From: Takakia lepidozioides
Lineage: Eukaryota; Plantae; Bryophyta
DNA length: 64,000 bases
Reading direction: 5' to 3'
NCBI GenBank assembly: GCA_030704615.1
Contig: CM060733.1
Span: 72,726,001-72,790,000 of the forward strand
Shown here piece by piece: positions 1-54,661 of the stretch (position 1 is its first letter; every line of letters starts with the position of its first letter). The notes beneath the pieces are model-generated. The model worked only from the letters and a program-made list of their open reading frames with translations, searched no databases and was not told where the DNA came from. The position numbers and the translations under genes were made by a program.

Positions 1-1639
1 TCTACAGTCATCCCTGTTGTAGGTCCAACCTGGCCTTCCGCTGCCAAGATACACAGAAATGCAGATGCATGCCATCCGGGCACCATCTCCTCGTCCGTCT
101 CACCATGCCACCGAGCTCCAGTGTCATCTTGTTGGCTCGTGCATGGATTGCGACTCAACCCATCTGCATTTCGATTGACCAAACCCGGTCGATGCACCAC
201 CTGAAAGTCATACTCTTGAAGGATGAGTGCCCACCGTGCAAGCTTCCCCGTAAGCTTGTCTGACTCCATCAACCACTTGAGTGGTTGGTGATCCGTGACA
301 AGGGTGAAGAGATTGCCGTATAAATAGCACCTGAAGTGTGCCACGGCCCACACTGCAGCTAAGCATTCTCCCTCATATGAGCTATACTTAGACTCTGCAG
401 CATTGTTGAGCGGCTAGCATAAGCCACTACGAACTCTCTTCCCTCATCATCCACCTGTGTGAGCACTGCTCCAAGCCCCAGCATGCTCCAATCTGTATGC
501 AGCTGAAAAGGACGCCCCCTGATAGGTCGTCTCAAGATGGGCGCCGAGGTCAACCTCGCCTTGAGCTCTTGAAAAGCTTGTTCTTGCTCATCTGCCCACT
601 GCCACTCCTGGTCCACCTTGGTCAGCTTGGTTAGAGCCTTTGCAATGGCACTAAATCCCTTAACAAACCGTCTGTAATAGTTTGCTAACCCCATGAAAGC
701 TCGAACTCGGCTCACATCCGTGGGGCGTGGAACCTGTGCAATGGACTCTACCTTAGTCTGCTGTACCCCCAATCCTCCAGGATATATCATGTGACCCAGA
801 TACTCAATCTGGTTGTGGAAAAACTTGCACTTGCCCGGATGTAACTTCAATCCGTGCGTCCTCAAGCGCTCAAATACCCCTTGAAGGTGTCTCTCATGCT
901 CCTCCACCGTAGCACTAAAGATGATGATGTCATCTATGTAGCACCGAGCAAACTCCACCCCTGCTAGAATCCTGTCCATGACTCTTTGAAACTCAGCGGG
1001 AGCGTTTTTAAGCCCAAATGGTAAGAACCGCCACTGGTATAGGCAATCCTTCCCGTGCTCATTGATCCCCCAGAATGCCGTCTTTTGCTTATCCGCCTCC
1101 TTGATCGGCAACTGGTGATATCCGGATCGTAAATCCAACGTGCTAAAGACCTTGGAATGCCCAATGGCATCAAAGATCTCCTCTGGTGTTGGCATGGCAT
1201 ACCTATCGGACTTGGTCTGACGATTTACAGGCCGGTAATCACCGCACATACGTCTCTCCGTCCAATTGCCATAGACATCCTTCTTGGCTGGCATCACTGT
1301 GGCTGAAGCATACTCTCCACCAGAGAGCTCCACCAAACCTGCCTCCCAGAGATCTTGAGTCCTCATCTGAATCAAAGACCTCTCCATGTCACTGTATCTA
1401 TAGGGTCTCCGAAAGATTGGCGTGTCAGTGGCCAACTCAATACGGATCTCTTGACCCTTCAGTGCTCCCAAGTCCTTCAAACTGAAGGCAAAGCAATTCC
1501 TGTAAGCCCTCAGGAACCGCCGTATACGTCGTCTCTCTCCTCCGGTGACAATGGGTCCAATATCAGGCTCCCAATTGTCCTCCGTAACTGCAACCTTAAG
1601 TCCAGTGGGCTTAGAGGTAGAGGACGCGTCCCGTGGTTG
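1..1639 (-). CDS. pol: Pol: reverse transcriptase and RNase H (one -1 frameshift near 410; integrase lies beyond the window)
   Basis: FAFSLKDLG, RMCGDYRPVN, LDLRSGYHQ, LPFGLKNAP, YIDD, LHTDWS..GLGAVL, VAYASRS. Restoring one A at ~410 gives NNAAESKYSSYEGECLAAVWAV..TDHQPLKWL..KLARWALILQEYDF. Confidence 0.95.
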
Positions 1640-3172
1640 CTATGCTGCAACCTCTTGAGCAGTACCCCCTTCCTGCTCAGTCAATGACAAGGCCTCATCC
1701 TGCCCCATCATCTCATCATTGAGAACCTCCTCATCCCGAGAAGAATCCCCAACCTCATCCATCACAGCTGCCTTCGCTGCCAACTCCCTCTGAACCTCGA
1801 GCACCTCCCACATGTGCCATGGATGTCTACACCTCGTGGTCCTCACCGGCTCGCCCCCACTCGCTGCCTGTACCGTCTCGGTAGGCAGAGAGACCATCAA
1901 GGGAAGTGCACTCCGCATTCTACGTTGCTCAGCCATAGCCAAGCTGACAATCCAGGTCAAGCAATTGAGATCCATTGCTTGCCCCAACACCTGACGACGT
2001 GATGCGTCAGAAAGGGAAGGCACCGCCGTGGTCCCAGTGGAAAACCCCATAGCCCGCTCTCGCTCGTCGGCATTAGGCTCCACTAACTGCTGCAACTGAG
2101 CATCCCACAGGAGGCCAGGTCCACCATCCCGAAAAGCATGGGATCCTGGGAAGCTGAGCAGTGTAGGTAATGCTGCTCGTGGTTGACCCACTCTGTTGAC
2201 CACTGCCAAAGGTGAACGGTCATCGTGTCTCACACGTTGGGACTGCCTTCCTGTGTCCAAAATGCCATCCACGGTGAGGTGTGCTGGCCGCTGCACCCCA
2301 TCAAATGCACGCTTGAGCAGTGCGGGTGGCATCAAGTTAGTCCACCATAGTCGTGGACGATGAGCCCGTGACCCCACTGCAGCTGCATCCAGCAATACTG
2401 CTGACCCAAGCCACGACCGGACTTGATGCACACTGGCCATCACCCTGGCCCGAGAATCACCCATCAGTGGCACATTCTCCAAGATGTATGCCGGAGATAC
2501 AGCCTGATGAAGCTGCAAGTGGCGCAAAATCCGCACCATCTCCCAAAACAGACCCGTCCTCGAGTCTCGCAATCCATTGCCATGCCCGGCTGATGAATGC
2601 CCTTGGCAGGGCCAACCTGCCACTACCAGATCAATGGAGCCAACCCGCTCCAAATCCTGCGCCCCCAGCAACGAAATGTCTGCTGGCAAGGCCTGCTGAT
2701 ATCCACGAACTGCAGACACCTGCAACAACTCAGGGTGCTGCTGCACCATCTGAGCCACATGGCGCAGTGAGACGCGTCGTGCAGTCTCATCCCTCTCCAC
2801 ATACAGGTAACGCCTTACCCGCACACCTGCCTGTAGCACAGCAGCCAATCCGGTGCTGATCCCGCCAAACAAGTCCAGAAGGCAAATGCCTTCATCCGGC
2901 CGCTGCCACACAAGAGGTGTGGTGTCCAATGGCGACAACTGAGGTGGCCCTGGTGCAATCACCGCACTCTCCTCCTCTCCTGACGGTACAAAAGCTTCTA
3001 CCCAAGCTTGTTGCACCCGTCCATCAGCAGCTTGCTGCAAATCCTTGTTCGTACCCCACAACGGAGTGTGAGCAACCATGGCAGGCAATTCCGCCGTACC
3101 ATGCATGTCATCCTGCTCTGCTGTGGCACATCCTCTGCATGGGCATTGCCTTCCAGCAACTCTCCAGGCCAA
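1640..3172 (-). CDS. DNMT3/DRM-like C5-cytosine DNA methyltransferase domain embedded in pol (core ~1960-2890)
   Basis: Motif I LLDLFGGISTG, II YVERD, IV DLVVAGWPCQ (catalytic PC), VI ILENV, VIII HRPRLWWTN, IX ERERAMGF and X RQVLGQAM, in linear order. Same frame as RT, separated by a single TAG at 1640-1642. Confidence 0.93.
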   Translation of the reverse strand: MAWRVAGRQCPCRGCATAEQDDMHGTAELPAMVAHTPLWGTNKDLQQAADGRVQQAWVEAFVPSGEEESAVIAPGPPQLSPLDTTPLVWQRPDEGICLLDLFGGISTGLAAVLQAGVRVRRYLYVERDETARRVSLRHVAQMVQQHPELLQVSAVRGYQQALPADISLLGAQDLERVGSIDLVVAGWPCQGHSSAGHGNGLRDSRTGLFWEMVRILRHLQLHQAVSPAYILENVPLMGDSRARVMASVHQVRSWLGSAVLLDAAAVGSRAHRPRLWWTNLMPPALLKRAFDGVQRPAHLTVDGILDTGRQSQRVRHDDRSPLAVVNRVGQPRAALPTLLSFPGSHAFRDGGPGLLWDAQLQQLVEPNADERERAMGFSTGTTAVPSLSDASRRQVLGQAMDLNCLTWIVSLAMAEQRRMRSALPLMVSLPTETVQAASGGEPVRTTRCRHPWHMWEVLEVQRELAAKAAVMDEVGDSSRDEEVLNDEMMGQDEALSLTEQEGGTAQEVAA

Positions 3173-4002
3173 CTAACTGCAGCTGTGAAGGCGGCTAGTG
3201 TTGGCATCTTGCCCCGCTGAGCAGCTGCAATACCCCCAATGAATGTCACAGGGAGCTGTGCACGGCGACCATCCCCTGACTGCCATCCAGGCCTGTAGGA
3301 TGCTGACTCCTCCCAGAAATCCAGGGTGAAGCCCATGGGGTATAACACTGCCCCACCAACGAGGACATCGTAAGAGACCGCGTCTGTCACAATGGCCTTG
3401 GCTCGCATCACTGAGCCATCTACAGGATGATCCGGCTGCAGTCTAATAGCCAACTGATGCCGTGTCATGCCGCGAGCCTGCTCTGATCCTCCCAGAGATG
3501 TCTGTATCTGGAAAGGACAAGGCTCCATATCCGCCTCCATGAGGCCCAAACCTGCAATAGCAGCTCTGCCCAACATCAGTGGCTGAGCTCCTGAGTCCAA
3601 CAAGACCCGCAGTGGCCGGTACTTCTTGCCTGCCGGTCCACTCAAAGTGAAAATGCCTCCCTGGTTGTCTAACAAGACAACTCCAGGTGTCACCATGGCG
3701 CGCTCAATGGCTGGCCTAGCTGGCAGCTCCGTCAATCTGGCAGCTGCAGCTTGCCAGGGCGCTGCCGTGGCAGTCTTGACCCTCAAATCCGAGGATCCCT
3801 CTGCCACTACACCTTCCACTAACTCCGCAGAAGATGAAGTGACCTCTCCACTCTCGCAGAGTGTTGCTGCTAGTCTGAACACTGCAGCTGGTCTCACTCC
3901 CGGCGTCGCAATCATGGTTGCCGAGAACAATGGGGCTTGACACACAGAGGTGGCTGCCCCCAATAACACACCGGCCGCACTAGCCTTGGCAGCAGGAGTC
4001 AA
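2998..4002 (-). CDS. Retropepsin-like aspartic protease region of gag-pol
   Basis: VLLDSGAQ active site (~3585-3610) and YDVLVG flap/terminal motif. Lies between gag and DNMT, with single-base frameshifts at both junctions. Confidence 0.85.
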   Translation of the reverse strand: MTPAAKASAAGVLLGAATSVCQAPLFSATMIATPGVRPAAVFRLAATLCESGEVTSSSAELVEGVVAEGSSDLRVKTATAAPWQAAAARLTELPARPAIERAMVTPGVVLLDNQGGIFTLSGPAGKKYRPLRVLLDSGAQPLMLGRAAIAGLGLMEADMEPCPFQIQTSLGGSEQARGMTRHQLAIRLQPDHPVDGSVMRAKAIVTDAVSYDVLVGGAVLYPMGFTLDFWEESASYRPGWQSGDGRRAQLPVTFIGGIAAAQRGKMPTLAAFTAAVSWPGELLEGNAHAEDVPQQSRMTCMVRRNCLPWLLTLRCGVRTRICSKLLMDGCNKLG

Positions 4003-5843
4003 TGCTGCACGTGTAGCTCTCCCAATGGCATAGTAACCTCCGCCTCGGTAACAGTCGGGCGAGAACTAGGTGCCATGGATGGCGTTGACACTGTCTCCGC
4101 CAAGGTGAATGACTGAGGCAGCCTTGCCTGGCGGCTTGCTTCCCCACGTTGTGGATCCAACTCCACCTCTGCACCTCGTGGCTCAGGAACTCGTGTTGCT
4201 CCTCGAGTCACGGCTGCAGCAGACTCCACCTGCTCTAATGGTAGTGCTGCTCCGCACATAAATCCCATTCCGCCCATATCTCCTCCCTCAGGAGCAGGAG
4301 GTGGGCCATCCCGCCTGGGAGCCGGTACCGCCTGAGCTATAGCCATGGCAGCGAGCCTCTGCTCTAGCTGCTGAAGCCGATTGGCCATGCCTTGGTCAAC
4401 ACCCTGACCTCCGCGTCCTTGGCCATGTGGAGGTTGCCCTTGGCCTGCACCTCGTGCCCGACCACCTCGTCCTCTTTGGGCTGGTCCACCTCGCCCCTGG
4501 CCGCCATTGTTCCCTTGGAACTGGCCTGGACGCAACTCAGGATGCAAGTCATAACACTGGGCATCTCCATGCCCATACTTGCCACAATGCCCACACTGCA
4601 ACTGTGCAGGCTGTGCTTGTGCCGGCCTTCTGCCACTCTCTGGGCAATCTCTCTTGACATGGGGTCCTCCACATGTCCAACATATCACCCCTGGTTGCTG
4701 TTGGCCTGCAAAAGATGCCACGGGCCTCTGCACCTGAGGTCCCCTGTAAGCTCCATGGAACTTGGGCTGGGCAACCTTGCCCCCCTGACCACGCTGTTGG
4801 GCAGTCCCTTGTGCTTGTGGGCTGACAGCTGTGCCCCGTACAGGCATGTCCTTACCAAATCCAATTGTAACAACTCGCTCCTCCACCATGTTGAGCTCAA
4901 TCCGCTCAGCCAGCAGAAACACATCTGCTAATGTGGGTTGGGCTGCTTGTAACAGGGTTGCATCTCGCACCCTTCTCTTGAGCTCCTTGTCCAGAATTCC
5001 ATACCAAAACTGGATTGCCTGAGCTTCAGTAACCCCTTGGGTCACACTTATCAAGCGCCTCATACGAGTGTACGCCTCTCGCAGGCTCTCACTGGGTTTG
5101 CGCTGGAAGTCTTGCAAACTTCGCAGCTTCTCTGTCCGTACACCTTGGTAGTTCCTCCGCAACTCCTGGAAGAACTCCACCACCGGGTTGAATCTAGGCA
5201 CATGTGTTGTAGCTGTGGCAGGAGGAGTAGTAGCACCTTCTGAACTGGTACCACCTGCAGAAGTACCAGCACTACCAGCTCCACTACTAGTGCTGGCAGT
5301 GGGAGCTATTGGTACTGATGCAGCTACTGGTCGCGTCATGCCTCGAGTAATGGAGATGTAGTCAGGTGACCAATACATCCTCCACTCCTCAATCTCTGCT
5401 TCATGTCCTCGCCTGAACTCGTGGTAATCGTCCATAGGCGGGCCTTCCAAATGCTGGAACAGTCCCTTCCACGCCATGAATGGGGTGAATAGATGTGGAT
5501 TGCGCATCTGCTGCAAATCACACCAGCTGTCGAACTCCTGGATAAAGTCATCCAACTCGATTGTGCCCACAGCTCCAGAGTACCTACGAGGCCCCTTGGT
5601 AGCTCCATACATCTCCTCCATGTCGTCCCACAACAATGGCGAATGAAAGTGCACACCTGTTGATGAAGCCTCCGAGCCTGTGTCTGACTCTACAGTAATT
5701 GAGGGTGGCGGTGAAGGTGGTCTGAACCGAATACCTCGTCTTGTGAACCCACTCTCACTGTTACTGCCTGTAGCCGTACTCCCCTCAAAACCCTTGGGTA
5801 ACTCCGTAATGACACTCACAATGTGCACCTCCTCCAGTGACAC
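3999..5843 (-). CDS. gag: Gag with two CCHC zinc knuckles
   Basis: Capsid-like FQRKPSESLREAYTRM (Q..ES..Y..RF-type motif), CWTCGGPHVKRDC, CGHCGKYGHGDAQC, and an RGG-rich tail. Confidence 0.9.
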   Translation of the reverse strand: MSLEEVHIVSVITELPKGFEGSTATGSNSESGFTRRGIRFRPPSPPPSITVESDTGSEASSTGVHFHSPLLWDDMEEMYGATKGPRRYSGAVGTIELDDFIQEFDSWCDLQQMRNPHLFTPFMAWKGLFQHLEGPPMDDYHEFRRGHEAEIEEWRMYWSPDYISITRGMTRPVAASVPIAPTASTSSGAGSAGTSAGGTSSEGATTPPATATTHVPRFNPVVEFFQELRRNYQGVRTEKLRSLQDFQRKPSESLREAYTRMRRLISVTQGVTEAQAIQFWYGILDKELKRRVRDATLLQAAQPTLADVFLLAERIELNMVEERVVTIGFGKDMPVRGTAVSPQAQGTAQQRGQGGKVAQPKFHGAYRGPQVQRPVASFAGQQQPGVICWTCGGPHVKRDCPESGRRPAQAQPAQLQCGHCGKYGHGDAQCYDLHPELRPGQFQGNNGGQGRGGPAQRGRGGRARGAGQGQPPHGQGRGGQGVDQGMANRLQQLEQRLAAMAIAQAVPAPRRDGPPPAPEGGDMGGMGFMCGAALPLEQVESAAAVTRGATRVPEPRGAEVELDPQRGEASRQARLPQSFTLAETVSTPSMAPSSRPTVTEAEVTMPLGELHVQH

Positions 5844-6356
5844 TATAAGGCTCTAGTACTAATCTAATAGTGACACGGGTGGGCACCTGTTGCAGTCTAA
5901 AGGGTCATATCCCAGTGGCTCAGGGCACCTGCACCTGCATCCACCGCAAGAACTCATATGGTTGGCTGGTCATCAACCCAGCCTCACCATAGAAGAAACA
6001 CTGGTGGTCTTGCTGGTCATCACTCCAGCCTCACCACCGACAGCATACTCTAGGATTGACCGGTGATCAAATCCGGCCTAATCCCTATGAAAGCAAGCGC
6101 CCACACAAAACCAACATGGCGCACAGTCAAGCATGCAGGTGTTGGGGGGGATCCAAACACAAGAAATCAAAACATCAACACCCCCACACCAAAATCCAGC
6201 TGCAATGCTGATCCTGCAGAATATCCCAGCCCAAAACCCCGGACTGACTGGCCTCCACCAAGAGAGGCTTTGGCAACTACAAGTATAAGGTAATGAAAAT
6301 AGTACAGAGATGGAGGGGAAGAATAGAAGCCCGCCCAAGCAAGATCTAACCCTGAT

Positions 6357-7193
6357 CTATGCTATCAACTTCCAGACTTCTCTCAAAGTACCTCGCTCTG
6401 CTTGATGGTAAGGTGTAGGAGGTATATCTATGTCCAGAAACCTGCCACTAACCTTGTCCCAAGCTACAGTAGCTCGCTCTAACCAACCCTCCTCCTCTTT
6501 CTGCCAGGTAGAGACAAAGCAACACTCTGCTATCTCCCGCTCACTGAACACTAAAGAAAACAAAGGTAGGGTCTGATAGTCTCTCAACTCGAAAGCTTTG
6601 AGACGGTTGCGGGTGTCTTCATTGCGAATGACTGCATCGCCTTCAAACAGAACAAACTTGTCCTCGCTAATGAACCCCCGCTCGTGGTTGCCTTGTGCAG
6701 CGCGTGTCCGACTGCAACACTGTCTAATTGCACAAACTTGTGCAGCTCCTGCTCCTCTGCTCCAGTACACCACGGCCTTGTGGCTGAACACCTTGGTCCC
6801 CGGTGCTGTCTTTGGCTGTGTTCCAAGCCTAGCTTTCACCCACTTTGGTATTTCACCTACAGCTGCAGAACTGCTGGCTCCAACAGAGTTCTGACTGTCC
6901 AAGGCGATATTGAGGCCCTCAATGCCAACTACAGCAGTCTGTTGTCTACTGCTAATGCCTGACTCCCAGTATGCAATCAACTCGTCCAACTGTTCTCCAC
7001 TCAAATCAGTCTGAGTTCCTTGGGAAACATAGATCCTGTCCCCTTGTGTGCACAGGCTAAGAGAAGAGACCTGCCCTTCAATTACATCCTCATTTCCCCC
7101 AGCCATACAGGGAGTACATCCACAGGTTTGTCTCTCATATAGGCCAGCACAGGTTCTAGAAACAGGATTGTGGATATTTCGTGGCACACTCAC
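6357..7193 (-). CDS. Unknown 278-aa ORF upstream of gag (possible accessory ORF0)
   Basis: Uninterrupted ORF on the gag strand with a Cys-rich N-terminus (CAGL..CGCTPC) and a globular-looking C-terminus. No recognisable family. Confidence 0.45.
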   Translation of the reverse strand: MSVPRNIHNPVSRTCAGLYERQTCGCTPCMAGGNEDVIEGQVSSLSLCTQGDRIYVSQGTQTDLSGEQLDELIAYWESGISSRQQTAVVGIEGLNIALDSQNSVGASSSAAVGEIPKWVKARLGTQPKTAPGTKVFSHKAVVYWSRGAGAAQVCAIRQCCSRTRAAQGNHERGFISEDKFVLFEGDAVIRNEDTRNRLKAFELRDYQTLPLFSLVFSEREIAECCFVSTWQKEEEGWLERATVAWDKVSGRFLDIDIPPTPYHQAERGTLREVWKLIA

Positions 7194-7734
7194 ACTCTAA
7201 AAATTCCATAGATTTTTAGCAGAGTCCCCAAAACAGAAACCAGGTTTAGATAGGTAGATTTCCCCTTTCTGTAGGTCCCTGTGCAAATTTGAGGTCAAAC
7301 AGCCTTTGTATGACCAAGTTATGGCAAAAACAGGCTCTGTATAATTTAAATTGGATCAAAGCAAAGCTCCAAATGTATTTCAATAAATACAAGTATTTTT
7401 GGCGTACCCTACATGTTTCATGCGAATACCCGTAATTCCGAGGACGGATCTCTACATATGCAGGAGCTTTAAAACTGGGAGTCGGGGATTTGCTACTGGT
7501 CGGTGTAGGAAAGAAAACTTCGCAGTCTGGTGCCAAGCGTCACGAATACCACTCCAAGCAGCGATGGCCTAATGCCCAAGATCCTGTCTTAACTGCGTGA
7601 TTTGTTCAATCAATGGAGCCCCTTCAAGCAACTGCTTCGGTCGTTTGTACTGATCATGTCTTCTTAGCTAGCCCCCCACCCTGCCCCCTCCCTCTCACAT
7701 TGTGTCAGATGAACACCTTAGCACGGAAGAGGCC

Positions 7735-7960
7735 ATCGAGCAGAATTGACATCACGGTGGACATAGTGGGCCTTGGTGTAATCGTGGATGTACTCCAACC
7801 CCCTCGCTACATCCAAGGCTATCTGCACTCTGCCTGACCACGGTAATGGCCGATGCCCATTTGCAGCAGCGTTATGAAGACGATCGGTGAGAGCTCCCTT
7901 CTCAACCAACTCGTAAACCAGGAACAGACTAGTCTCACCTGCCGAATATCCGATCAACTC
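7735..7960 (-). pseudogene. LysM receptor-like kinase (LYK3-like) kinase-domain fragment
   Basis: [59 protein letters not shown]. Truncated after HRD; no DFG or APE. Confidence 0.75.
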
Positions 7961-10569
7961 CGCCTTCGGTGGAACAACCCAACTCACAAAGAATTCAGAC
8001 CAGTTCCCAACGTATCTGGAGCGACCCTGGAAATTGTATTCTCGCACGGTACATTTGGGAGTAATTGTTAACCCAACTGGCTGGCTTCCTTGGTTGGGTA
8101 CCTTTGCATTCAAGACCCTTTTTTATGCAGAGTATCAAAGCAGGCGGTCTCATGGGGTCTCATACAGGTCCACGCAAATCACCAGTCCAAAGGTGGCCGA
8201 CCACTTTTCAGGCTTCAAACACCTGGCTACCAGGTACATGAATCAATGGGTTTTATACTTCGCTCTGATTTCTTCAATAGCTGATGTCGTAGCTTCCTTT
8301 GTCTGGAATGTCGCTTAGACAATCGTCTTCTGCATCCCTCATGTTGATGCAAAAGATCCGCAAGCTGGAGAATTTTTTTAAGACAAATAAAATAAAATAA
8401 AACCCAATGTGACCAGCAGCAGCCGACAGAGGCTGATAGGTGGCAGACCTCCTACTAGCTCTCCAGCAGCCCGCAGTAGTTTGAACCTTCCACCCTGAGC
8501 CTAGCAGGCATGAAGAAGGGCGGGAATCTTCCAGCTTCCCCGAATGATACACCCGATGCAGTGAAAATCAGAATAATACAAAGCTCTACCCTGTTTCCAC
8601 AAGAAAATCGCAGTGATAGAGACATCCCAGTGAAATGATATTGCTCAAGAGTTGACGCATTACATCACCAATAAGTACAATCGACATCTGCACGCATTGG
8701 CTGATGACGTGCAATCCAACACGATGCCCAGGTAGCAGTTCCGCACACTGTCACCGCCTGCTCTACATTCTCGTGGCCTCACTAGCCCCAATACATGCTT
8801 CTACTTGTGCTCGACTCGGTGATTTCAGATGCCACTAGTACTTGGACCGGCCCCCATGGTGAAGATTGAACCTGCTCGACCTTCAGTGTCCGGCAATGCA
8901 CCGGTTAACCTATATTACGGGAAGCAATACCTTCTTTCAACAATATGGGCTTCTCAGTTCAGCCCCTTCCAACAACCTTGTACAAAGCAAAGCATTCTGT
9001 TCTCGACAGATATATATATGGATTACATAATTCTCCACTTCACCAGCTCTCAAACAAGCTTTGAAACAAAAACAAGTATACTAGTGCTAACTAAAAACTC
9101 ACATCTAGCACTGACAATGCAAGCTCATCTCTCTCGAGTGATAAACAAAGCTAAAAAGGACATACACTTCCAACACAAGAAATATGAAATCCATCGCTAT
9201 CACTCATTGAAACTGAAGTCGAGCCAGGGGCACCCCAAGCTATGGGGACTCCACCCCACAACAACCTGTATCCCTACATAAGCACACTAAAACCTAAACA
9301 CATGCAGGAGCTCGGTCGCGCAGGCTCAACTCGAGAGAGATGAGCCGCGCGACTGCCGCTCTCGTGAAGATAAGACAGACCAGGTGTCAAACTAAACTTG
9401 ACACCTGATTTAACACTTGACCTAAATCCAAGTGTTAAATACAAATAACTAGTTTTATTCTAGCTGTTTTCACACTGTGCTTATTTAACTTGACACAATA
9501 TCTGAGTAAGCCAATTTATCAGACATTTATCAGTAGATGAAACTGTGAAGGCAGGATTCCTCCTCACCTGGTTTTTGGTCTTGGATGAATGGACACCGGA
9601 TGTATCTTGGATGAACTGCTACGTTAATACAACTAAGATGAGCTAGTACAGCTAAGGGTATTAATATAAACTTGTCTTTTCTAAACAGCTAGTTTCTTTG
9701 GATTAGATTAGGATAACAGGCCGAGCTGGCACTGTTTTATGGTTCGCCAATGTATGATGGCCATTTGGGCCTAGATTCTAGTACTACTTAAGCTAGTGCG
9801 CGAACGCAAGCTGGGTGGTGGATTTGATCTCAGATTGTGTACTTTGGATGTGCTGGATGGTGTAGTTGGTGTGCTATTGATGTGTGATGAAAAATGTTGT
9901 TTCGTTAAGTCCTCTGGTGTAGATTCCATCCTTTTGGTTAAGCAAGTCTACTCACTATATCCCCTCGTTTTAGCCATTCCCGGTAGAGGAAGGGAATAAC
10001 CCCTTGGCGCCGGAATCTTGGTGGAGATGCGGAGTAACTAAAATCGTACCCACGACGGATGATACTAATCATTTCAGGTGATTGTCTGTGACAGGAAGAA
10101 TAAGGTACAATCGCCAAGGGTGCAATGGCGGCACGCTTTCAGCACTTTGTTTTTGCGAGCTCGTTTCTAACTTACACAAACATGTGAGGAAAGTGGTTGC
10201 AGAAAGCTATGGTGACTCCAGGCCCCCGGATCAACGTTCGCCTTTTTCCCCTTCGCGATGAGTGTGTGCGGCGAGGCTCGTTAGAGAGCCCTTTCAACTT
10301 TTCGCTTATGTTCTCGTTTTTGAGCCACAGTAGTAACTACTTTGGCTGCTTCTTCCGCAGCCTCCGCTTCAAACTTAGCAACCCAAAAATTTGAGGCGGT
10401 GTCAAGCTCGATTTCCTCTCTCTACCACGGCTCGTTTTTGTCAAATGCAGTGTGCCTGCAAATGTCTTCGCTCAAGCGCACTTGGAGCTCGTGAATGAAT
10501 GTTAACTCAAAATTGAGATCAGGAGTTATCTCAACTAGAATCGACTCGGAGTTAGATGATGACCGGCGA

Positions 10570-19563: not shown

Positions 19564-21300
19564 GGAAATACGGCGCCGCATTTCCGTATTGCATCTTGGT
19601 CATGCAACAGAGCGACGGAAATGCGGCACCGAGTTTCCGTCCGGGGGAAACCTTTATACTCTCCAGAACGGAAATGCGGTAACGCATTTCCATCCAGCAA
19701 GCACGGTATGTGAAGGTGGAACGGAAATGCGGTACCGCATTTCCGTTCTGATTCAGATTTATGAACAACGGGAACAGAAATGCGGCACCGCATTTCCGTC
19801 CGAGTCGCACTTTTCGACATTCCAGAACGGGAATGCGGCGCCGCATTTCCATTTTGTATCTGATGCATGGAGTTGAGGGATAGAAATGCTGCAGCACATT
19901 TCCGTCCTTAAAAGACATTCATACTCTCGAGAACGGAAATGCGGTACCGCATTTTCATTCAACAAGCACGGTATGTGAAGGTGGAACGGAAATGCGGTAC
20001 CGCATTTCCGTTCTGATTGAGAATTATGAACAACGGGAACAGAAATGCGGCACCGCATTTCCGTCAAGTCGCACTTTTCGACATTCCATAAAGGAAATGC
20101 GGCGCCGCATTTCCATTTTGTATCTGATGCCTGGAGCCGAGTAAGATTCCGACAGCTTCATACAGCGCAATTCGACGGTTGAGACATTCACACTATCCAG
20201 AACGGAAATGCGGCACCGCATTTCCGTTCTGACTGAAAATCGTGAACTCTGAACTGAAATGCGGCACCGTATTTCCATCCGAGTCGCACCTACCATCATT
20301 CCAGAACGGAAATGCGGTACCGCATTTCCGTTCTGACTGAAAATCGTGAACCATCGGAACTGAAATGCGGCAACGTATTTCCATCCGAGTCGCACCTACC
20401 ATCATTCCAGAACGGAAATGCGGTACCGCATTTCCGTTCTGACTGAAAATCGTGAACCATCGGAACTGAAATGCGGCAGCGCATTTCCATCCGAGTCGCA
20501 CCTCCCAACATTCCAGAACGGAATGTATTAGATTTAAAAGGGAAATGCGGCACCGCATTTCCGTTCTGATGAAATATCCTGAAACATCGGAATTGAAATG
20601 CGGTACCGCATTTCCGTCGGAGTCCCACCATCCGACATTCCAAAAACGGAAACGCGGTACCGCATTTCCGTTGTATGTGAGGCATGGAGCTGTGGAACGA
20701 AAATGCGGGAAGGCATTTCCGCCAGCGTCGGACGTTAATACTCTACAGAACGGAAATGCGGTACCGCATTTCCATCTGACTGAAAATCGTGCGCAACGGT
20801 ACAGAAATGCGGCACCGGCATTTCCGTTCGGAGTCCACCCTTCCGACATTCTCGAACGGAAATGCGGCGCCGCATTTCCGTTTTGTATATTCGGCCTGGA
20901 GCTGTGCTACGGAAATGTGTTGCCGCATTTCCATCCATGTGAGTCCTTACAACCTTTCCAGACCGGAAATGCGACACCGCATTTCTGTCCAGGGGACCTC
21001 TATACTTTCCGAACGGAAATGTGGCACGGCATTTCCATTCACAACTAACGTATGTGAAGGGAACGGAAATGCGGCGCCGCAATTTCCCTTCTGAATCTCA
21101 TACATGGAGATGTGGGACGGAAAATGCGGCACCGTATTTCCGTTCAACAACTAAGGTATGTGAAGGTGGTGGAAACGGAAATGCGGTGCCGCATTTTCTT
21201 CCAAAAAGTACGGATGTGTAGCTTCGGAAATGCGGGCGCCGCATTCGCATTCTCGCTCCAACTCATCATCAGACGCTGGGACGGAAATGCCTTGAAATGT
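19564..21300. repeat. Array of ~30 copies of a 22-bp palindrome GGAAATGCGG-NN-CCGCATTTCC at a ~53-bp period
   Basis: Starts at 19564, 19617, 19670, 19723, 19776, 19829, 19882, 19935, 19988, 20041 and onward. The ~31-bp spacers are much more variable than the motif. Higher-order 265-bp and 106-bp duplications are present. Confidence 0.95.
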
Positions 21301-22082: not shown

Positions 22083-25000
22083 ATGGAGAATCGCCAGCAG
22101 GGGTCGGGCCCTTCTCCAGCAAAGTCGAAGAAGAAGCAGCCCGTCCCTCTACTGGCTTCTGAACCGGCTCAGGCCGATTCACCCCCCCCAACGCGAATGA
22201 AGCAGCAGGGTAGAAGACAGATTCTATTGCAGCAGACACCTTCACCTGCAAGGATGAGGAAGCAGAAGGCAATCAGGGCGACGGGCGAACAATCTCCCGC
22301 AAAACCGCTTCCACGAGCTGAAGCTCAGTTCCTGGAGGATTTCCCGCCTGCAGATGTTGGGGCCGACTCTGCTGCAGCGAAGGCAATGGGATCGACCGTT
22401 GATCTCGATTTGGTACCGGAGGAGGGTGCTGCGCCGCTGAACGTTCGCAGGCAGACCTCACCACCGATGAGCTAGCAGGCCCGGAGGAGGCCTCTGCAAT
22501 GGCAGAATTGCCCGCACACAGGCCCCAGAGTGCAGCTCCAGTTGAGGATGCTCCAGCTGCTCAGCCACTACCGCCACACCGACCTAGACATGTCTCCGGA
22601 GGATTTCAAAAGTGCAGCGGATAAAATGTTGGAGGAGACACACAGTAGCATTGGCAGAGTTCTGGGCAGCAGGGTATTCCAGCGGACTCTTCGAATCCCA
22701 CTCTGTCGCATGGTCTCCCTTCCCATCGTCAGGCAGGCCCTTCCCGGAGATGTGGATAAGCTCAAGTTCGCATTTCGAGAAGGGTACCGTCTGGGATCGG
22801 CAGCGTTTTACGTTTCCATAGAGAATGAGGACGGCGAAACCGTGGACCCACTGCCGATGAATTGTCAACGTGGGATACCCACTGGCACACTCGCAACCAC
22901 GAATTCGAGGCGACGCTGAAGGGTGATCCCGACTTCGGCCATATGTCGGGAAAATGTTCTTTGTGTGGGACGGGAATCACCGACTTCTCGCCTGGTGGGA
23001 GTACATCAAGCAGAACCATGCCAAGCACATTGGCTGGCATTACATGGTGGAGTGTGTCATCCTCAAGGTGAAGGCGGCAGACTCCTCCCTGCTCAAGAAT
23101 GCCATGGCGGACCTCAACTCGTAAGATACTCATACCCTCCCTAGCACATTCGAAATGCGGTGCCGCATTTCGGTTTCCATTCTGGTTTGATTTCCGTGCT
23201 TCCGTGTACTGAACTGGAGAGTGTGCCTTGCAGGGTCACTGAGAATGCGTACGTGCATACCCACATGGCACATATGCTGTACAGGGTGAGGAAAACTGGT
23301 CTTACTGATCCGCAGATGTTTGCGGAAATGCTGGAGCCGAGCTCATTCAGAAAGCCGTTGCAAAAACAGACCGGACATGGTATCGTCTCACTATGGATGG
23401 AATGGTGGAGGTGATATACGAAGTAAGTCGTGCTCCAATTTCCCTCTGCTCATCCTTCCCCAATTTCCAGTAATGTTTCCACATGAATCGAATGTAACGC
23501 TTCTGCATGTTTTTGTTGGCAGTCAAACATCAAGCTGGATTTGGCCCATGCCAAACGCTTCTTCATGGAAAGTGAGGGGCAGGTCAAAACGTTGCAGTCA
23601 TTGACTGAGCACTTGAAGGAAGCCGGTGTCAAGTCCAGAACCAAATACAAGTCAAAGCTTGTGAAGCTGGTGGCAATTGCAGATCCGGCACTTGGAAAGG
23701 ACTTCATCCCCGAGATTGCAAAACACTATTCTCGGGCCATGCAGCCGACCATGCAATTGGAGAAACTGCATCACCTCTCAACGGCATGTGTGGAGGCGAA
23801 AGAGAAGGTGAGGTTTCAATGCACTGAATTTCCTTCCTAGCAATAGCCACTCTCTTCCAGCCACTGACATTGGATCGGAAATGGCAGACACGGTGGCTGT
23901 CGATCTGGAATGCATCCGAGAGCATAAGGACAATGTGGTCTTTTCCACTGGAAGTTTCCGACCCTGCAGTGGATGTGTGGCTCAACCGTATGACTTGGTG
24001 GTTCCAGGTAATTCAAGGTACTTCCCCAGATTTGCTTTTCTGACATGAATTCCCTGAACTGCTACGTGACAATGCATTTGGGAATGGCAGGTAATGTCGA
24101 ATGCGAAGGAGCAAGTCGTAATGCACACAAATTCGTTCGGCTTGTACGTCAAATGGGATGGAACACAGACATTGGAAGACTACGTGACACGTTTCAGATG
24201 TGCGTACAAGGACAACCTTTTCGCCAGAGAGCTACAGACAGCAAGAAGGAGCGTGGAGTTTACACATCAGGAGGGAGCGGGGAAAGCTGCAATGCGAATT
24301 GTTTACAGGTGAAGCACAGCTGCCCTTGTATGCGAAGCCTGGTTACGAGGTTTGTCTCGGAAATGCGGCACCGCATTCGCATTTTATGTTTTCGGTGGCA
24401 CTCTGCCAGTAGGTTGGTCTCAACTTTTGCTCACGCATGCTGACTGCCTTGCAGGTATATGAAATACGTGCTCCTTCAGACAGGGGCCCTGGCTCAAGAG
24501 CCCCCGTTCTTCATGGCTTGGACCGTGGCGGGCCCAAGCTGTGTCTACACACCCGAGATGCAGAAACAATGGCATCCCGCGCATCTCGTTGGATGCCCGT
24601 GGTACCTGGACATGTCTGGCGGTATTGTTGACGAGTCTGAGAAAGATCTGCACGCCTTGGCAGAAGAGAAGAGAAAAAACGTGTCCCTGCTGGGCCAAAG
24701 TCGGCAAAGGAATCTGCTGCTCTGGAAGAATCCAGAAAGGCAGCTGAGATGGCACAAAAGACGGTGGATGCAGCTGTGCAGGCCCAACAGAAGGGGTCGA
24801 AGAAGAGGACTCGCCAGCAAGGAGCAGCTGTTGTGACACCCGCCAAAACGAAGAAGCAGAAACAGCCTGTTCAGGAAGAGGGTGAGGAAGAGGACTCCGA
24901 TGGAGACTTTGCAACCAGCCCACCCCCCCAAACGCAGGCTGCCTCCCCTGTGCCCACCGTTGTCACGAGAGGCACGAGAACTGGCTCGGCAAAGAAGGCA

Positions 25001-26804
25001 CTCTTCAACCCCCCAGGGGGGCACCCTTTCGAGCCGGTGGAAATGAAGAGGCCGAAAGTGGCTCCCGAAACTGTAGTCCAGTGTGTAAATGAGAGTTTCT
25101 TGGCGGCTTTGGATGGACGGGCAGCCAAGTTGGCATACATGAAGACCATGGAGGGTCTGAAGGGCAGAGCACTGAAGAAGGCGACTGCCGAAGAGCCTTC
25201 CGACACCCCAGGATTTCAGAATATGGTCTCGTTCTTTGAGAGGGTGTGTGCAGACAAGGATTGTAGGAGGGGCGGAAATGCCACCGAGTGGTCTTGCGAT
25301 ATGATCATCTTGGATATTCCGGACGGAGAGCCTGTGGAAGGACTGCAAGCTTTGCCATCTTGGAACAGGTACTCGGAGGACTTTTGGAAGAAAGGATTCG
25401 GGCTTGCCCGCATGGTGTTGGACGACAGAGGCTGTGTGGTTGTCCTGGCGAGCAGAGGAAAAAACACTCAGACAGGAATTGCGAAGTGGACCCGCAAGAG
25501 CGCCGTCCCGATTCTGAAAAAGAAGTGGACGTGCATCAACACACTGGGCCTTCGGTCGGAAGGGAAGAAGGTGATTACGACACTGGCACTCGTCCATTCA
25601 TTTGCTTGGGTGCTTTCAAATGCGGTGCCGCATTCGGTTTCTAATCGTTTTCCCCCTGTGTATGCAGACGAAGCAGTTCGATGCATACTGCTTTGTGAAG
25701 GAAAACTCCACCTTTGCTTTCCGGAAGGAGGGAGGAAAGGTTGACCCGAACTGCGACCCACTCGATTACGACGTTCTGTTCAACAACGTTCCCAAGGAAC
25801 TTCTCCCTCATAGCCTCACTTCAACGGAACCCCTGCGGTACTCACGGACTCGGAGCCCTGCCTTCATTCAGACAATTATGGAGACATGCACAGACGTGGA
25901 GGGCACAGTGCTGGACCTCATCTGTGGGACAGGTATGCAGAATCTTGATCTCTGCTGTTCTGCAAATTCTCGTTAGGATGTAGTTCGCAACATCTGAAGC
26001 GCCATGTGGTAATGTGTGGATGGCATTGTAACAGGTGCCTCAATGTGGGCTGGGCGGTTTTCCGACCGGCACCTCTTTGCCTACGAGGAGGATTCATCCG
26101 TGTGGGGATCCCATCTGGAGGGGCTGCAACGGAATGTGAAGGCTCCCGACAGAGCGGAAGTCTCCTCGGATTCGTCGGAGTCCGAGGAAGACACAGTGGA
26201 CATTGATGCAGAGGAGAACCCGGAATACGAGTGAGTGCAAACATTGTAAGTTTGCAAAGCCTTCTGGGTCATTTATGTCAAAGGAATTTCCCGACTGTGG
26301 TTCTCATTAGTCTCGTTGATGATTGTCATGTGCAGGATTGCAGGGTCCGGGTCGAAACATGTAGGGCCTACACTTCCTGCCAGGAAGAATGTCCCGTTCT
26401 TTGCGAGGGCCGACTTCATGACGAGCCCGGTGAGGGACTACTCCCTTCCTAGTTATGCAGCTAAACTCGCAAATACAGCGATTAGAAGAAGTGAGAATCC
26501 CAGTAAAGTAGAGCAGATTTTGGAGAGGGCTAGGGAGGACAGAAGGATAAGGAAAGAGTTGGCAGCAGCTCAGACAGGTAGACGGGTACGAAAGTACATA
26601 TGTGATTCAGCGGATGAGAGCGACGCAGACAGGGAGGAAGACGACCCAACGGAGGTGAGATGGACAGTTCCGCAAGGGGAAGATGGGATTTTCGAAAGCC
26701 TGGCCAACGAGCAGTCCGCTGGAGATGAGAGAGGCACTGAGGGGGTGGAGGAGGAGCAGGACAGTCTAGAACAGGATGAGGATTCCGATGATTTTCAAGA
26801 TTAA
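22083..26804 (+). CDS. Multi-exon TE gene: ParB/Srx-like N-terminal domain, unknown middle region, beta-class N4/N6 DNA methyltransferase-like domain, acidic tail
   Basis: FVWDGNHRLLAW (DGNHR at 22969-22983). DMIILDIPDG..ARMVLDDRGCVVV (25298-25445, DPPY-equivalent). RSPAFIQTIMETCTDVEGTVLDLICGTG|ASMWAG..RHLFAYEED (motifs X-I-II). GT-AG introns at ~23121, 23423, 23808, 24008, 24309, 25570, 25933 and 26230. Homologs elsewhere in the window share intron positions. Confidence 0.75.
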
Positions 26805-26940: not shown

Positions 26941-27705
26941 AGAAATGGGTCAGGGCATTTCCAAAATTTGGCAACTCTAAGAACCTCTTTTGGAAATGCG
27001 GCACCGCATTTCCAAAACAGGGGAGGGACTAATTTTTCCATTTCAATGTTGGCATAGTAAAAAGTAATCTGAACTGGAATGCGGTGCCGCATTTCCAAAA
27101 TTTCCTTTGTCCACACGCCAGTTTTGGCCTCTCCCGCTCATTGCATGGATGCCACCACGCTTACAGAGGTCGAACAAGGAGGTCGAACAAGGAGGCCGAC
27201 ATGGCGGGATTGAAAATGCGGTGCCGCATTTCCATATTGGGGATGGTCGTTGTTCGAACTGGAGGCCCATCAGCAAAAATTGGCACCGCATTCCATTGTA
27301 AAAAAAAAGTCGATGACGGACATGGAAATGCGGCGCCGCATTTCCAGAACGGACATCGCAATTTGTCCATTTGCAGACCCTCTCTCGGAAATGCGGTAAC
27401 GCATTCCATCGCGCTGGTCGGAAATAGGTGCACTTTTCGAAGTGTTGGACGGAAATGCGGCACCGCATTCCCTTGTCCAAAAAGAAGTTTCCATTGCCAC
27501 GCTGGAAATGCGTCGCCGCATTTGCAATGCCAACCTCGTTTTCTGATCAATTTATAGACCCGTGTTGGTATTTCGTGTACCTGGACGGAAATGATGCACC
27601 GCATTTCGATGTCCGACATGGAAATGCGGTGCCGCATTTCGATCCCGACATGGAAATGCGGCGCCGCATTTCGATGCCGACATGGAAATGCGGTGCCGCA
27701 TTTCA
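26941..27705. repeat. Second cluster (~13 copies) of the family-A palindrome, downstream of the ParB-MTase gene
   Basis: Copies at 26941, 26992, 27075, 27212, 27274, 27324, 27387, 27451, 27504, 27587, 27620, 27652 and 27684. Confidence 0.9.
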
Positions 27706-28218
27706 ATGTCTGACATGGCGTTACTCTGGTATATTCTTGACACATGACTCACATACCGGTTACTCTGCTTTATTCAACGACAGACAAATTGTAGAAATGA
27801 GACATCAAATTGTAAACAGTGGGCCAAATCGAGAGTTATTCAACACAATGAAACACAGTCATACAGAAGTGAGGTACATTCCAGGGCACACTCCAGGGCA
27901 CATTTAAATTTCCCCCGTACAGGATCCTGGACCGATGAAGATTGGCTGCTGCATGAATGTAGCCGTTTCAGTTTCCTACCCTGCCATGCAAACTATGGGC
28001 ACTCACTGCCAGTTGGGCCGATAGCCACTGGACACGACGAAGTCCATCCCCTCTTCGATGTAAATGCGGCGCCGAATTTCCATCCGGGGGGATGGACTTC
28101 GGTGGCAGATCTCAAACTATAACTTGTTGATGAGAAAGATGTATGGCTTCATCCACCGCTGCCGTGATGAACACGTTCCACCTCCGTCGGTGGGTACGTG
28201 TGACCCAGATGCTCCATT

Positions 28219-30829: not shown

Positions 30830-33800
30830 ATTGTCCAAAGTTTTTGTCCACATCAATGAACAAAATGAAGCAAATGCCGATCATGGAGCCATCACATATG
30901 CGGGCACGGACGGTGAAGTGGACATGTCTGGCATGAAACAACTTTCAATCTTCTACGAGTTGTCATATTGGGCGATACATATTCCACAAAAAAACCGTCA
31001 ATATCCCTATGCATGCATGTAATATTGCACATTTGGTATGCGTTGCATTGTCACTTTCACGTCAAAAAATTCGTGTAAGTATTTGTGGGTGGGGATATAT
31101 GTAGGACTTGAAGATTCCCCATCTTCTAGATCCCATGCATATTGAGAAGAATGTCTGCCCGTCCCTTTTTCGGGTTCTTCATGGCACGCCGGCAAAGAAT
31201 GGAGTGGCTGCAAAAAGAGATTCTCTCGGCGTTAGAAAGGAGTTTGAGGAGCAAGGTTGCATGCGCCATCTATGGGCCGAACAAAATGCTGTGGACCCAA
31301 AGGGTGTTATACGGTGGAAGTATAGGCGCGCACCTTGGCAATGGACAAAGGAGGAATACAAGAAAGTGATAGCCACCATAAGTGCTGTCCGAACACCAAC
31401 TGGTTATGGGTCATCCCTCCGTACGAAGAAGACGAAGAAGACGGGGTCCATGGTTTGAAGTCTCATGACTACCACAATCTATTGCAAGACATTTTGCCCA
31501 TTGCAGTACGTGGGACATTGACTCCCAAGGTTTGTGAGACAATCTATAGATTGAGAGGCTTGTTCCGGTGGATTTGCTCCAAAGAGTTGGAGGAAGCGGA
31601 TTTTCCATGCATGAAGAAAGAGGCGGCGGAGGTAATGTGTATGTTGGAGATGCACCTTCCTCCCTCCTTCTTTGACATCCAAGTGCACTTGGTAGTGTAC
31701 TTAGTGGAAGAGGCTTCGATTGCCGGCCCCGTTCATTCTCGGTGGATGTACTTCCTTGAGCATTATATGAAGACTTTGAAAGGATTTGTAAGACAAATGG
31801 TGCACCCGGAGGGTAGCATGGCGGAGGGGTATACGTTGCAAGAAGCTATGTTCTATTGCACGGAGTACATGACAAGGGTGGATGAGAAAGCCCCTCGGAT
31901 GTGGAAGGAAGAGATGCACGAACCAATGACATCGTTTTGCCCAAAAAATCGAAGAGGGTAAAATTGCCGATCTTGGTGATTGAGCAAGCGCATAACTTCA
32001 TACTGAAGAACACCCTATCCATACATGAATAGGAGACAAGATACATTAACCTTGTTCAGCAATGAGAGGAGGAGACGCTTGCATGGAGGCGGAACTATCC
32101 AAGGCCGACGAGGAGCGGGCTGCCGGAATGTTCATTCACAAAATTTGCCCATGGAATTGCAGCCTCTAAGTTCATTCCAACAGTGGCTTCGGACTTCAGT
32201 TTATGACGTCGTTGCTCAAGGAGAGGTGGTTTCAGATTTGGTGCAAGACATTGCAAAGGGCCCCTCTCAATTCGCGATCTCATACACGGCGGTTTGGGTT
32301 CATGGTCGTCATTTCCGCATTCGTGCTCTTGACATGAAGCGCAAAACAACCTTTGATTCTGGCTTGTGTGCCACATATTGGCAAGACTCCGTGTGGGGCA
32401 AGGGAGATACACGACCTGCTATGAGCAAACTTGAGTACATTGGAGAGCTTGAGAGCATACTCCAACTTCAGTATACAAAGTACCGGCCTCTTCTCTTCAA
32501 GGGAAGGTGGTTCCAGCCACATCTTGTGGGGCCCTCCGCAACACTAGTGCAAGATGATTGTGGTTTCATGCACGTCAATGCAGATAGGCTCAACCCTACT
32601 CATCGTCCCTCCGATGAGCCTTTTTCACGGCCTTCAGACATGGAGCAAGTTTTCTTCTCTGATGACAAAACGAGAAGGGGGAATTGGAAGGTGGTTGTGC
32701 ATGCTCAGCCAAGAGGAAGACGTATCTATCATGGTCTCGGATCTCCATGGGGTGAGGCAATTGCGGTGGATGGAAAGACTGATCATAATGATGCTGATGA
32801 TGGAGGTTGGGTAGAGGGGATAGAAGAGGATGATGACGCCCCCAGAGAATGCATCCCGGACACTATATGATGAAGCTCCAGAAGATATGGATGTTCGAGA
32901 AGAAGATGAAGACACGACCATTGACAACGAGGTGGAGGATGATTCGGAGGTGCCTTTTGAGGGTCGGGCCATTTACGACGATGACTCCGATGACCAAGAA
33001 GATTTGCAGCTTGATGAGGATGAAGAAACTCCGAATGATGATGTTCAAGTTGATTAGACACAAAATCAAAGCTACATAATAATTCTCGCATCGAACTGTA
33101 CCCATCCCTTCGATTGATTGTACATGTACATGCATATTGTAGCTTATTTCTATTATTGGTCAAATATGGCTGTGGCTGGTAGTCTTTCAAGAAAGAAGGC
33201 AGAGGCAATGAATATGTTGGAGCAACACATACAGATGTGGTATCAAGAGAATTATCAAAATGAATGTCACAATCTACAAGAAGGTCCACAACAACAAGCT
33301 AAACCATAAAGAAAAACAAACACCCTATCCCAGTACCATATGGTTAAAAAAAAAAAAAAAAAAAAAACCCCCAAAGACCCTAAACCTAAACCTAGAAAGC
33401 CCTGCCGTCGCTTCCTGCGACCCCCACGCGTCGTAAACTGCGACGCATTTATAGGATATATGAGGCCGGGGGTTACAAACGGCGACGGCAAGCCGTCGCA
33501 GGATGCGACCTATTTTTTTTTGTTTTGAAAGAATTGGGCAACCCCTATTTGCGACGAGCGGCCGTCGCCAATGTTTTTTGCCATTCATGCCACCATGTGA
33601 CGGCCTGGCGTCGCCAACAAGGGTTGCGATGAAAGAAAGGGCAAGAAAGGGCTGCTTTTTTTTCGCTGGCGACGGCCGGTCGTCACCAGAAAGGCCTGCC
33701 TTCTGCCCTTCGTTGGGGGGGCGACGCTTGGGCGTCGCATGGAAGGGCTGCCTCCTACCCTTCATCCGCCCGTACGACGGCCGGGGCCTGACCCGCGGGG

Positions 33801-40428: not shown

Positions 40429-41578
40429 GTCTTCCATTCCTCAACAGATACCCATTGTCGAAGTCCTCTGGCATGCAACTGTCGTCATAGTGTGCTTTGG
40501 CAGAGTCTGTGGCAGAGTCGCGTGCGACAGTTCCCTGAGAGACTCGCATGCGCGAGTCTGCTGGCAGACTGGACTCGACCAAGTCGCGTGGGCAAGCCCG
40601 ACTCGCCCGACCAAGTCGCTGGCAGACTCGCCAGGCCGAGTCCGCCAGAAGACTCGCAGGGGCGAGTCTGCTGGCACCCTTCATGGGTCTGCTAGAGATG
40701 AGGAGAAATTGTGGAATGAATACTTTTCTGATCCCAGTCAATGGTGGGACAATTGAGGCAAAAAGGTGAATGCCTATTGGATTAGTACAGAGAGAAACAG
40801 ATGCAATTGAGCATAGGAACTAGTGTGATAAGTTGAGTTGGGTGTCTGCTGGAACAAATCTAGGTTGTCATTGAAATGATGATCAATCATCTTGATGTCG
40901 ATCTTGAAGAATATTGGTCGAGAGTTAATCCATCTGTTGCGGAAATCACCTTGGGGATCTTCGGTAGCTTAATGCATGCGAGTGCAGGGATGATTCAAGT
41001 AGTCAACAGAATATTTGTTGGACATATTTCAACCATGGCTCGTCTCAGGAGGGTTTCTGCTTAGGATGCTAATGGGAATTGCTGGTGGAGTGATTTCTAT
41101 TTGCAATGAGCCAAGAATTATCTTCTTGATCTGATTGTGGGAGGCCAGAACCCATTACTGAGAGATCCGCGCATTGATCTTTTCACATGTGAAATAGTTC
41201 CGTCAGATGTAGGGTAACACATGCCTTTGTGGAGATCACTGAAATGATTTGAAAGATCCACATGACCTGCTTGAGGTTCACTTTCAATGGCCATGTAAGG
41301 CTAAATGTTCAACTACAAAGATATGTATATACCCTATTTCAATCAGTGATTTCACTGGTCATCACATCATTACTGCACAATCCATGAGTGTTTGTCGCAC
41401 CAATCTTCAACTGCTCTACACGTGCTGCTAGGAGGCCTTAAAATGTGTATCCCCACTAGTGCTCAGTTTAGCTTCTGGGCATGGGCTGAAGTGCTTGGGG
41501 ACAAGAGTATCTAGCTCCATGTGTAGGGTGCAGTGCAGTCTATGAAATTGACGTTGTCTCTTTTTTTTGTGGATGGAC

Positions 41579-54500: not shown

Positions 54501-54661
54501 ATTCCGCTACACACCTCGACCCCTCCTAGCTAGTATGCCGTCACCCTGACCGCGCGCATCCTGGGCTCGTCACTGACACGCACTTTGTATTGCATTATGT
54601 TGGGGAGGAGGAAAAATAATTTTCTCTTTGCTACCACAGTGAGAAGCTGGCCATTGGTTTT

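Follow-up and report, generated by a model that had tools for sequence, protein, structure and literature searches.

A DNMT3-like methyltransferase domain in an abundant Gypsy retrotransposon family of bryophytes, and the conserved stop codon that follows it

Earlier descriptions of retrotransposons carrying a DNA methyltransferase (DNMT) concern dinoflagellates and a single charophyte. The stretch of DNA analysed here (the window) spans 64,000 nucleotides of Takakia lepidozioides and contains, at one end, a methyltransferase reading frame amid retrotransposon genes. The locus raises the questions of whether such a domain is a stable component of a land-plant element, at which level the enzyme would be made relative to reverse transcriptase (RT), and what its substrate may be.

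Organization of the window copy and identity of the domain

The element lies on the minus strand of positions 1-5852, in the order gag, protease, DNMT, RT-RNase H and the rest of RNase H. The features of this region and of the adjacent upstream ORF are as follows.

6360..7196, minus strand: upstream ORF, member of a family of 200-236 aa proteins without a name (ORF list and homologs)
3999..5852, minus strand: gag ORF (ORF list; weak PF03732 match, E 0.0018; 53% to residues 1-490 of Marchantia P0001)
2998..4065, minus strand: linker and aspartic protease, with an LLDSGA motif at 3603-3586
1640..3172, minus strand: DNMT3-like C5 cytosine methyltransferase ORF (Pfam and PDB searches, structure model, alignment)
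1634..1642, minus strand: in-frame stop, TAG CAA CCA (UAG-CAR-YYA; sequence and conservation in relatives)
359..1639, minus strand: RT and the beginning of RNase H, sharing the frame of the DNMT (YIDD at 940-929; Pfam)
3..413, minus strand: remainder of RNase H, past a frameshift break near 407

The gag ORF has its first methionine at 5621, carries two zinc knuckles (4682-4644 and 4595-4554) and terminates at a frameshift break near 4020. The protease ORF, which has a break of its own near 3122, gave no Pfam match; its relatives bear PF13650. Within the DNMT ORF, a catalytic domain (approximately 1937-2902) is followed by an acidic linker. The first methionine of the RT ORF occurs only at codon 85. 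As a result of the three breaks, gag, protease and DNMT are in three different frames and RNase H is split; many other copies aligned at these positions lack the breaks. The element extends past the edge of the window, beyond which lie the integrase, the PHD finger and the right repeats, and its left end was searched for in 5850-9000 and not found. The Gypsy domain set (Gag, protease, RT, RNase H and integrase) with an intronless Dnmt3 is thus seen up to RNase H in the window, and its integrase and PHD portions are known from relatives. The window copy is a broken member of a Gypsy retrotransposon family that carries a DNMT3-like domain. The stretch is present in runs of four studies under one organism label. 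The family is very abundant, as evidenced by the 64,949 contig records of one sequencing run that align to 6.6 kb, a summed contig depth that is not equivalent to copy number. None of the data sets recorded as RNA contains the stretch; one run, guessed to be RNA but possibly DNA, covers positions 1-2014 of the window.

The DNMT ORF comprises 510 codons with zero internal stops, is intronless and matches PF00145 (E 4e-13). Six motifs are recognizable: motif I (DLFGG, 2875-2863), motif IV (GWPC, Cys at 2608), motif VI (ENV, Glu at 2479), motif VIII (RxR, 2359/2353), motif IX and motif X (GQAMD at 1984). The first-pass annotation had described an intact, intronless methyltransferase with all main catalytic motifs, located between protease and RT. 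The description is accurate for the ORF, which is flanked by the DSG motif of the protease on one side and the YIDD of RT on the other, but "intact" does not apply to the broken copy of the element.

The same annotation had labelled the domain DNMT3/DRM-like, and only the first half of this label was retained. The motifs follow one another in unpermuted order (I at residue 100, IV at 189, VI at 232 and X at 397). DRM identity was rejected, as the circular permutation (VI-X before I-V) is lacking and the DRM2 match is confined to query residues 94-219. A PDB profile search based on 39 relatives ranked DNMT3A first (E 4e-27), followed by DNMT3B (1e-24), DRM2 (4e-13), DNMT2 (7e-12) and M.HhaI (3e-10), a ranking by similarity and fold and not by a tree; a single-sequence search likewise placed DNMT3A first. 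DNMT3A was also the top hit (TM 0.74/0.84) in a fold comparison of a structure model built from 39 sequences (pLDDT 93.8). By sequence profile and modelled fold, the domain is a C5 cytosine methyltransferase of the DNMT3 type.

Fold and motifs resemble those of host DNMT3A/B and bryophyte DNMT3. In contrast to these enzymes, the element domain, at 22% identity, features neither PWWP/ADD domains nor introns and has a different catalytic-loop sequence. Since the loop that follows the PC dipeptide is unlike that of DNMT3A, a preference for CG should not be assumed. Catalytic residues are highly conserved in an alignment of 139 rows, made up of the window, 15 chosen loci and 123 proteins that align over 270 residues or more. 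The catalytic Cys occurs in 135 of these rows, the Glu of motif VI in 137, and the two arginines of motif VIII in 132 and 130, respectively.

The upstream ORF, located on the same strand approximately 500 bp upstream of gag, consists of 279 codons (249 residues from the first Met). It has 23 homologs, the best of which measure 200-236 residues (best E 1e-39); Pfam, PDB, viral and fold searches gave it no match (best Z 4.5). The ORF is absent from the 80 metagenome loci described below, and the region in which it lies is repetitive at least to 6600. It could belong to the element as an additional ORF, or to another repeat.

Elsewhere in the window, several gene fragments are found among repeats: a receptor-like kinase fragment (7718-8122, minus strand), a RABA4-type GTPase (Rab) exon (41552-42076, plus strand) and a broken PPR gene fragment (54500-55100, plus strand). 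Of the neighbouring fragments cited in the first-pass annotation, the kinase exon is confirmed as a kinase by Pfam, while the PPR piece falls below the Pfam cut-off and is broken. Named matches of the Rab exon (69-74%) come from ferns, Riccia, gymnosperms and angiosperms; the first by E-value is fish Rab11B (59%). The exon thus does not single out the class of the host. A second Gypsy element (56892-63998, minus strand) has an open frame of 2368 codons encoding RT, RNase H and integrase, to which approximately 1500 residues without a Pfam match are fused in frame after the integrase; this tail features a tandem repeat with a unit of 10 residues and a long stretch that resembles a coiled coil. 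A fragment with chromovirus-type RNase H, integrase and chromodomain maps to 48378-50171 (plus strand), and DUF4218 and DUF4216 pieces, which we take to be a CACTA-type transposase, to 31326-32870 (plus strand). Two diverged copies of one unnamed ORF set without a Pfam match occupy opposite strands (24641-26804 and 43433-45436), and arrays of repeated motifs are found around 20190-21050 and 27030-27910.

Hosts, element ends and selection

Homolog searches retrieved 129 proteins of nearly the same length and 72 longer ones. Those with a species name come from Marchantia (up to 74% across the entire domain), Calypogeia (75%), Riccia and four Sphagnum species; algal homologs are more divergent (Klebsormidium KFL_017580010, 36%; Chromochloris, 34%). 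Ferns, lycophytes and seed plants are absent from the named homologs; transposon ORFs are often masked in annotations. A search of IMG/VR returned only phage methyltransferases (27-42% identity) and no such element.

In the DNMT tree, the window sequence falls within a clade (support 1.0) in which all named members are bryophytes, and the Klebsormidium protein is on a separate branch; deep nodes are weak in this tree, which was midpoint-rooted with host DNMT3 left out. The RT tree returns the same main groups. Two domain orders are observed: the protease-DNMT-RT order of the window and, in a distant group with Chromochloris among its members, an RT-RNase H-DNMT-integrase order. The latter is a large group (P0038-P0068, RT-RH-DNMT-IN-PHD), many members of which have PE instead of the PC-adjacent P, or H in ENV variants; its sequences suggest that the family may reach chlorophytes with another domain order.

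A metagenome scan identified at least 311 relatives, the best 80 of which (L001-L080) were kept. All 80 fetched loci carry the DNMT domain, and RT lies behind it in 59/59 loci with a readable junction. The one-off capture envisaged in the first-pass annotation, in which other copies would lack the domain, is not what these loci look like. Nor does the contig appear to be algal or a contaminant, as close relatives are located on chromosome-scale liverwort and Sphagnum contigs. Three groups of loci are relevant here. Group B sits beside Sphagnum proteins in the tree, and group C contributes four junctions. Group D (L043-L080, for instance L049:5634-14948) is a second DNMT-Gypsy lineage from the same metagenome assemblies as group B; the two are approximately 40% identical and have the same split repeats and palindrome, group D being without the stop between DNMT and RT.

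The ends of the element were examined in relatives. Five complete ones (L036, L041, L047, L049 and L056) have repeats arranged as A-coding-B-A-B, and the four of these examined feature 4-bp target duplications and TG...CA ends. The integrase of the relatives is of the rve type and has a C-terminal PHD finger. At the B-A junction, 12 loci, drawn from groups B, C and D, have a CA-NN-TG sequence embedded in a short palindrome. Our guess is that this palindrome could reflect an integrase that cuts circular cDNA. The A-B-A-coding-B arrangement, also expected from a circle cut at either palindrome, occurs in 0/42 loci with repeat hits, which weakens the simple circle-cut idea. The Phygy lineage has an NCGN target duplication (PMC6317226); NCGN was found in 0/4 target duplications of the relatives, and the element was not filed under Phygy.

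Selection was estimated by the Nei-Gojobori method in 14 pairs, 3 of which were saturated and gave undefined values. Five unsaturated group C and D pairs gave a dN/dS of 0.09-0.13 for the DNMT, similar to that of RT (0.06-0.13). The window gave 0.08 against L012 and 0.23 against L032, both near saturation. Values are higher among close, decayed copies (DNMT 0.30-0.74, RT 0.17-0.62), including those within group B (DNMT 0.37-0.74, RT 0.43-0.62). The DNMT domain is under purifying selection, with a between-lineage dN/dS of approximately 0.1, far from the value near 1 that the first-pass annotation had named as refuting its reading. Its suggestion that the phenomenon extends to land plants is borne out: given the liverwort and Sphagnum relatives, the 80/80 loci and this dN/dS, a land-plant Gypsy stably carries a DNMT3 domain. 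CpG depletion was considered as an element-specific mark and rejected, the observed/expected ratio being 0.51 versus 0.40 in another Gypsy of the window.

The stop between DNMT and RT

The DNMT ORF is closed by a TAG (1640-1642) that is in frame with RT and directly followed by CAA CCA. The shared frame noted in the first-pass annotation was therefore correct, but the TAG breaks the continuity of the two ORFs. Because the stop is conserved, ORF1 consists of Gag, protease and DNMT, and the domain is at the end of the Gag-protease ORF rather than inside the pol polyprotein, where it had been placed.

Junctions could be read in 59/80 metagenome loci. In group B (26 loci, from which 3 duplicates were removed, although some of the remainder may still represent the same locus), 22 of 23 distinct junctions keep the stop (15 TAG and 7 TAA). 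Behind it, 21 loci have CAA CCC, which matches five of six consensus positions; the full CAR-YYA is found in 0/23. All four group C junctions feature TAG and a full CAR-YYA (CAG TTA or CAA TCA), and the four differ only at degenerate places, though the linker protein is unrelated. None of the 29 group D loci has a stop followed by CAR-YY: 14 are open, 8 have scattered stops and 7 are shifted. DNMT and RT share one ORF in group D and in P0031, P0033, P0034 and P0128, unlike in the window and in groups B and C. The three stop-bearing lineages share ancestry and are not fully independent.

Among host copies in four runs, no variant at positions 1634-1644 reaches the 2% threshold, while 1632, 1633, 1645 and 1646 vary. 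The stop is also retained in a copy from a second organism that has 21 differences in 167 bases. By comparison, 7 stop triplets out of 4,662 in the window, and 71 out of 34,652 in the loci, have CAR-YYA behind them. In L022, a single stop is present from gag to the end of PHD. The first Met behind the stop ranges from codon 3 to codon 117, so that no restart codon is shared. Most long near relatives terminate 94-165 residues past motif X, without RT. Six RNA folds of the region behind the stop, computed without shuffle controls, made no shared structure evident. The Klebsormidium protein and two relatives (P0182, P0170 and P0163) all end 27 residues after motif X; accordingly, the Klebsormidium lineage may likewise have a stop after its DNMT.

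A stop in a CAR-YYA context is reportedly found in soybean SIRE1. Readthrough is described for TMV, of which CAR-YYA is the consensus, and for MuLV gag-pol and SIRE1 (PMC2194720). The window element resembles these systems in having an in-frame stop directly followed by CAR-YYA. Here, however, the stop sits after Gag, protease and DNMT, leaving an epigenetic enzyme on the abundant side of a predicted readthrough site. Judged by sequence, a TMV-type readthrough signal (stop plus CAR-YYA, with the downstream ORF in frame) is present in the window and throughout group C, and at five of six places in group B. A Gag-PROT first ORF is already known among plant LTR elements (PMC6317226). We consider it quite probable that pol is made by readthrough of the conserved stop.

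Proposed role, alternatives and relation to known elements

If the stop is leaky, most ribosomes would terminate after the DNMT and yield Gag-PR-DNMT, and a minority would continue into RT-RH-IN-PHD. A stop in this position makes packaging in bulk more plausible, and the DNMT is reasonably likely to be freed by the protease and packaged with Gag. Inside the particle, it would mark cytosines of the new cDNA, a substrate to which we give an even chance. The likely benefit would be a new copy that is marked like host heterochromatin on arrival and thereby hidden from surveillance or damped in its own activity. Packaging and cDNA methylation were put forward for the algal elements (PMC5890265, section 11). 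As a whole, the reading of a high-copy bryophyte Gypsy whose ORF1 (Gag-protease-DNMT3) ends at a leaky stop, and whose enzyme acts at the Gag level to methylate new cDNA, is the one we favour, with some reserve. The family works without the stop too, as indicated by group D.

The alternatives are not all mutually exclusive. The DNMT might act on host chromatin rather than on cDNA, together with the PHD finger that the integrase carries; its targets would be insertion sites, genomic copies of the element itself or competing elements. Expression in bulk would exceed the need of one cDNA per particle, the relatives' integrase does end in a PHD finger, and DNMT3 serves de novo methylation in bryophytes (PMC10952607). 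This appears rather unlikely, as the DNMT bears no targeting domain, its fusion downstream of Gag and protease suggests a place in the particle, and the Klebsormidium methylome is ordinary despite such elements (PMC5890265, sections 9 and 11).

It is unlikely that pol derives from a spliced or internally started RNA, an arrangement that would still leave the DNMT linked to Gag. Introns do join DNMT to RT in three Marchantia gene models, but the junction is skipped at a different place in each. Group B has an ATG two codons past the stop and an imperfect hexamer, but this ATG is missing from the window, L022 and L059. There is a precedent in Candida Tca2, whose leaky-looking in-frame stop is not read through in yeast (PMC2194720); against it, the DNMT-RT frame and CAR-YY are maintained in the present family across saturated dS.

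A role in binding or in RNA methylation, instead of DNA methylation, is improbable given that all catalytic residues are retained in approximately 95% of the 139 rows and that the domain is nearer to DNMT3 than to DNMT2 (E 4e-27 vs 7e-12), even though the Klebsormidium domain was inactive in yeast, a result its authors call inconclusive, and RNA methylation was raised by them for other elements (PMC5890265). Lastly, one-off capture, contamination by an alga or a nonsense mutation confined to a dead copy, with which the broken window copy would agree, can practically be dismissed: domain and stop are family-wide, relatives lie on contigs of chromosome scale from Marchantia, Calypogeia, Riccia and Sphagnum, and the Rab exon of the window has land-plant RABA4-type matches.

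The closest known system is KnitGypsy-Dnmt3 of Klebsormidium nitens (de Mendoza et al. 2018, PMC5890265). In both cases a Gypsy element bears a Dnmt3-type domain that is intronless, unrearranged and under purifying selection, and both combine DIRS-like split repeats with Gypsy domains (PMC5890265, section 9), the repeats being known here from relatives only. They differ in that the present family has land-plant hosts, forms a separate well-supported DNMT clade and has a conserved stop between DNMT and RT, whereas in KnitGypsy-Dnmt3 the DNMT shares an ORF with RT and RNase H (PMC5890265, supplement file 1). SymbioDIRS-Dnmt3, which methylates CG de novo in yeast, and SymbioLINE-Dnmt, in which the DNMT is in an ORF upstream of RT, are also retrotransposon-borne DNMTs (PMC5890265). 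These Symbiodinium elements belong to other classes (tyrosine recombinase and LINE); the bryophyte family has an rve integrase, PHD and 4-bp target duplications.

A 2026 preprint (10.64898/2026.05.21.726589) names such elements "Gypsy-DNMT3" of streptophytes, a word that could include land plants. In the full-text literature searched (figures, bioRxiv supplements and subscription papers being outside its scope), elements of this kind are named only in PMC5890265 and in this preprint, and the portions covered of the two describe neither land-plant members nor a readthrough site. The portions covered of PMC12885004, 10.1101/363937, 10.1101/2021.11.30.470311, PMC8557442, 10.1101/2022.06.16.496473, PMC10952607 and PMC11244446 make no mention of land-plant members or a readthrough-type junction, and those of PMC6317226 contain nothing on methyltransferase, PHD or readthrough. 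The element is best described as a land-plant, apparently leaky-stop form of the known Gypsy-DNMT3 kind, of which the land-plant members and the junction are new as far as the searched literature goes.

Many "DNA methylase" gene models of bryophyte genomes are transposon ORFs. With members of the family in Sphagnum and in liverworts, Marchantia among them, the question of the role of the enzyme can be asked in a genetic model plant. The leaky-type stop predicts that the enzyme is made at the level of Gag and not of RT, and sister lineages without the stop offer a natural comparison. In a wider scenario, which we offer as tentative, a green-lineage Gypsy would have kept DNMT3 from algae into liverworts and mosses, one branch would have made it a Gag-level particle protein by way of a leaky stop, and copies would be methylated before insertion; the split ends with CA-NN-TG would suggest an integrase that cuts circular cDNA. 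If this is true, Marchantia, a tractable model with many copies, could owe some of its de novo methylation to such elements.
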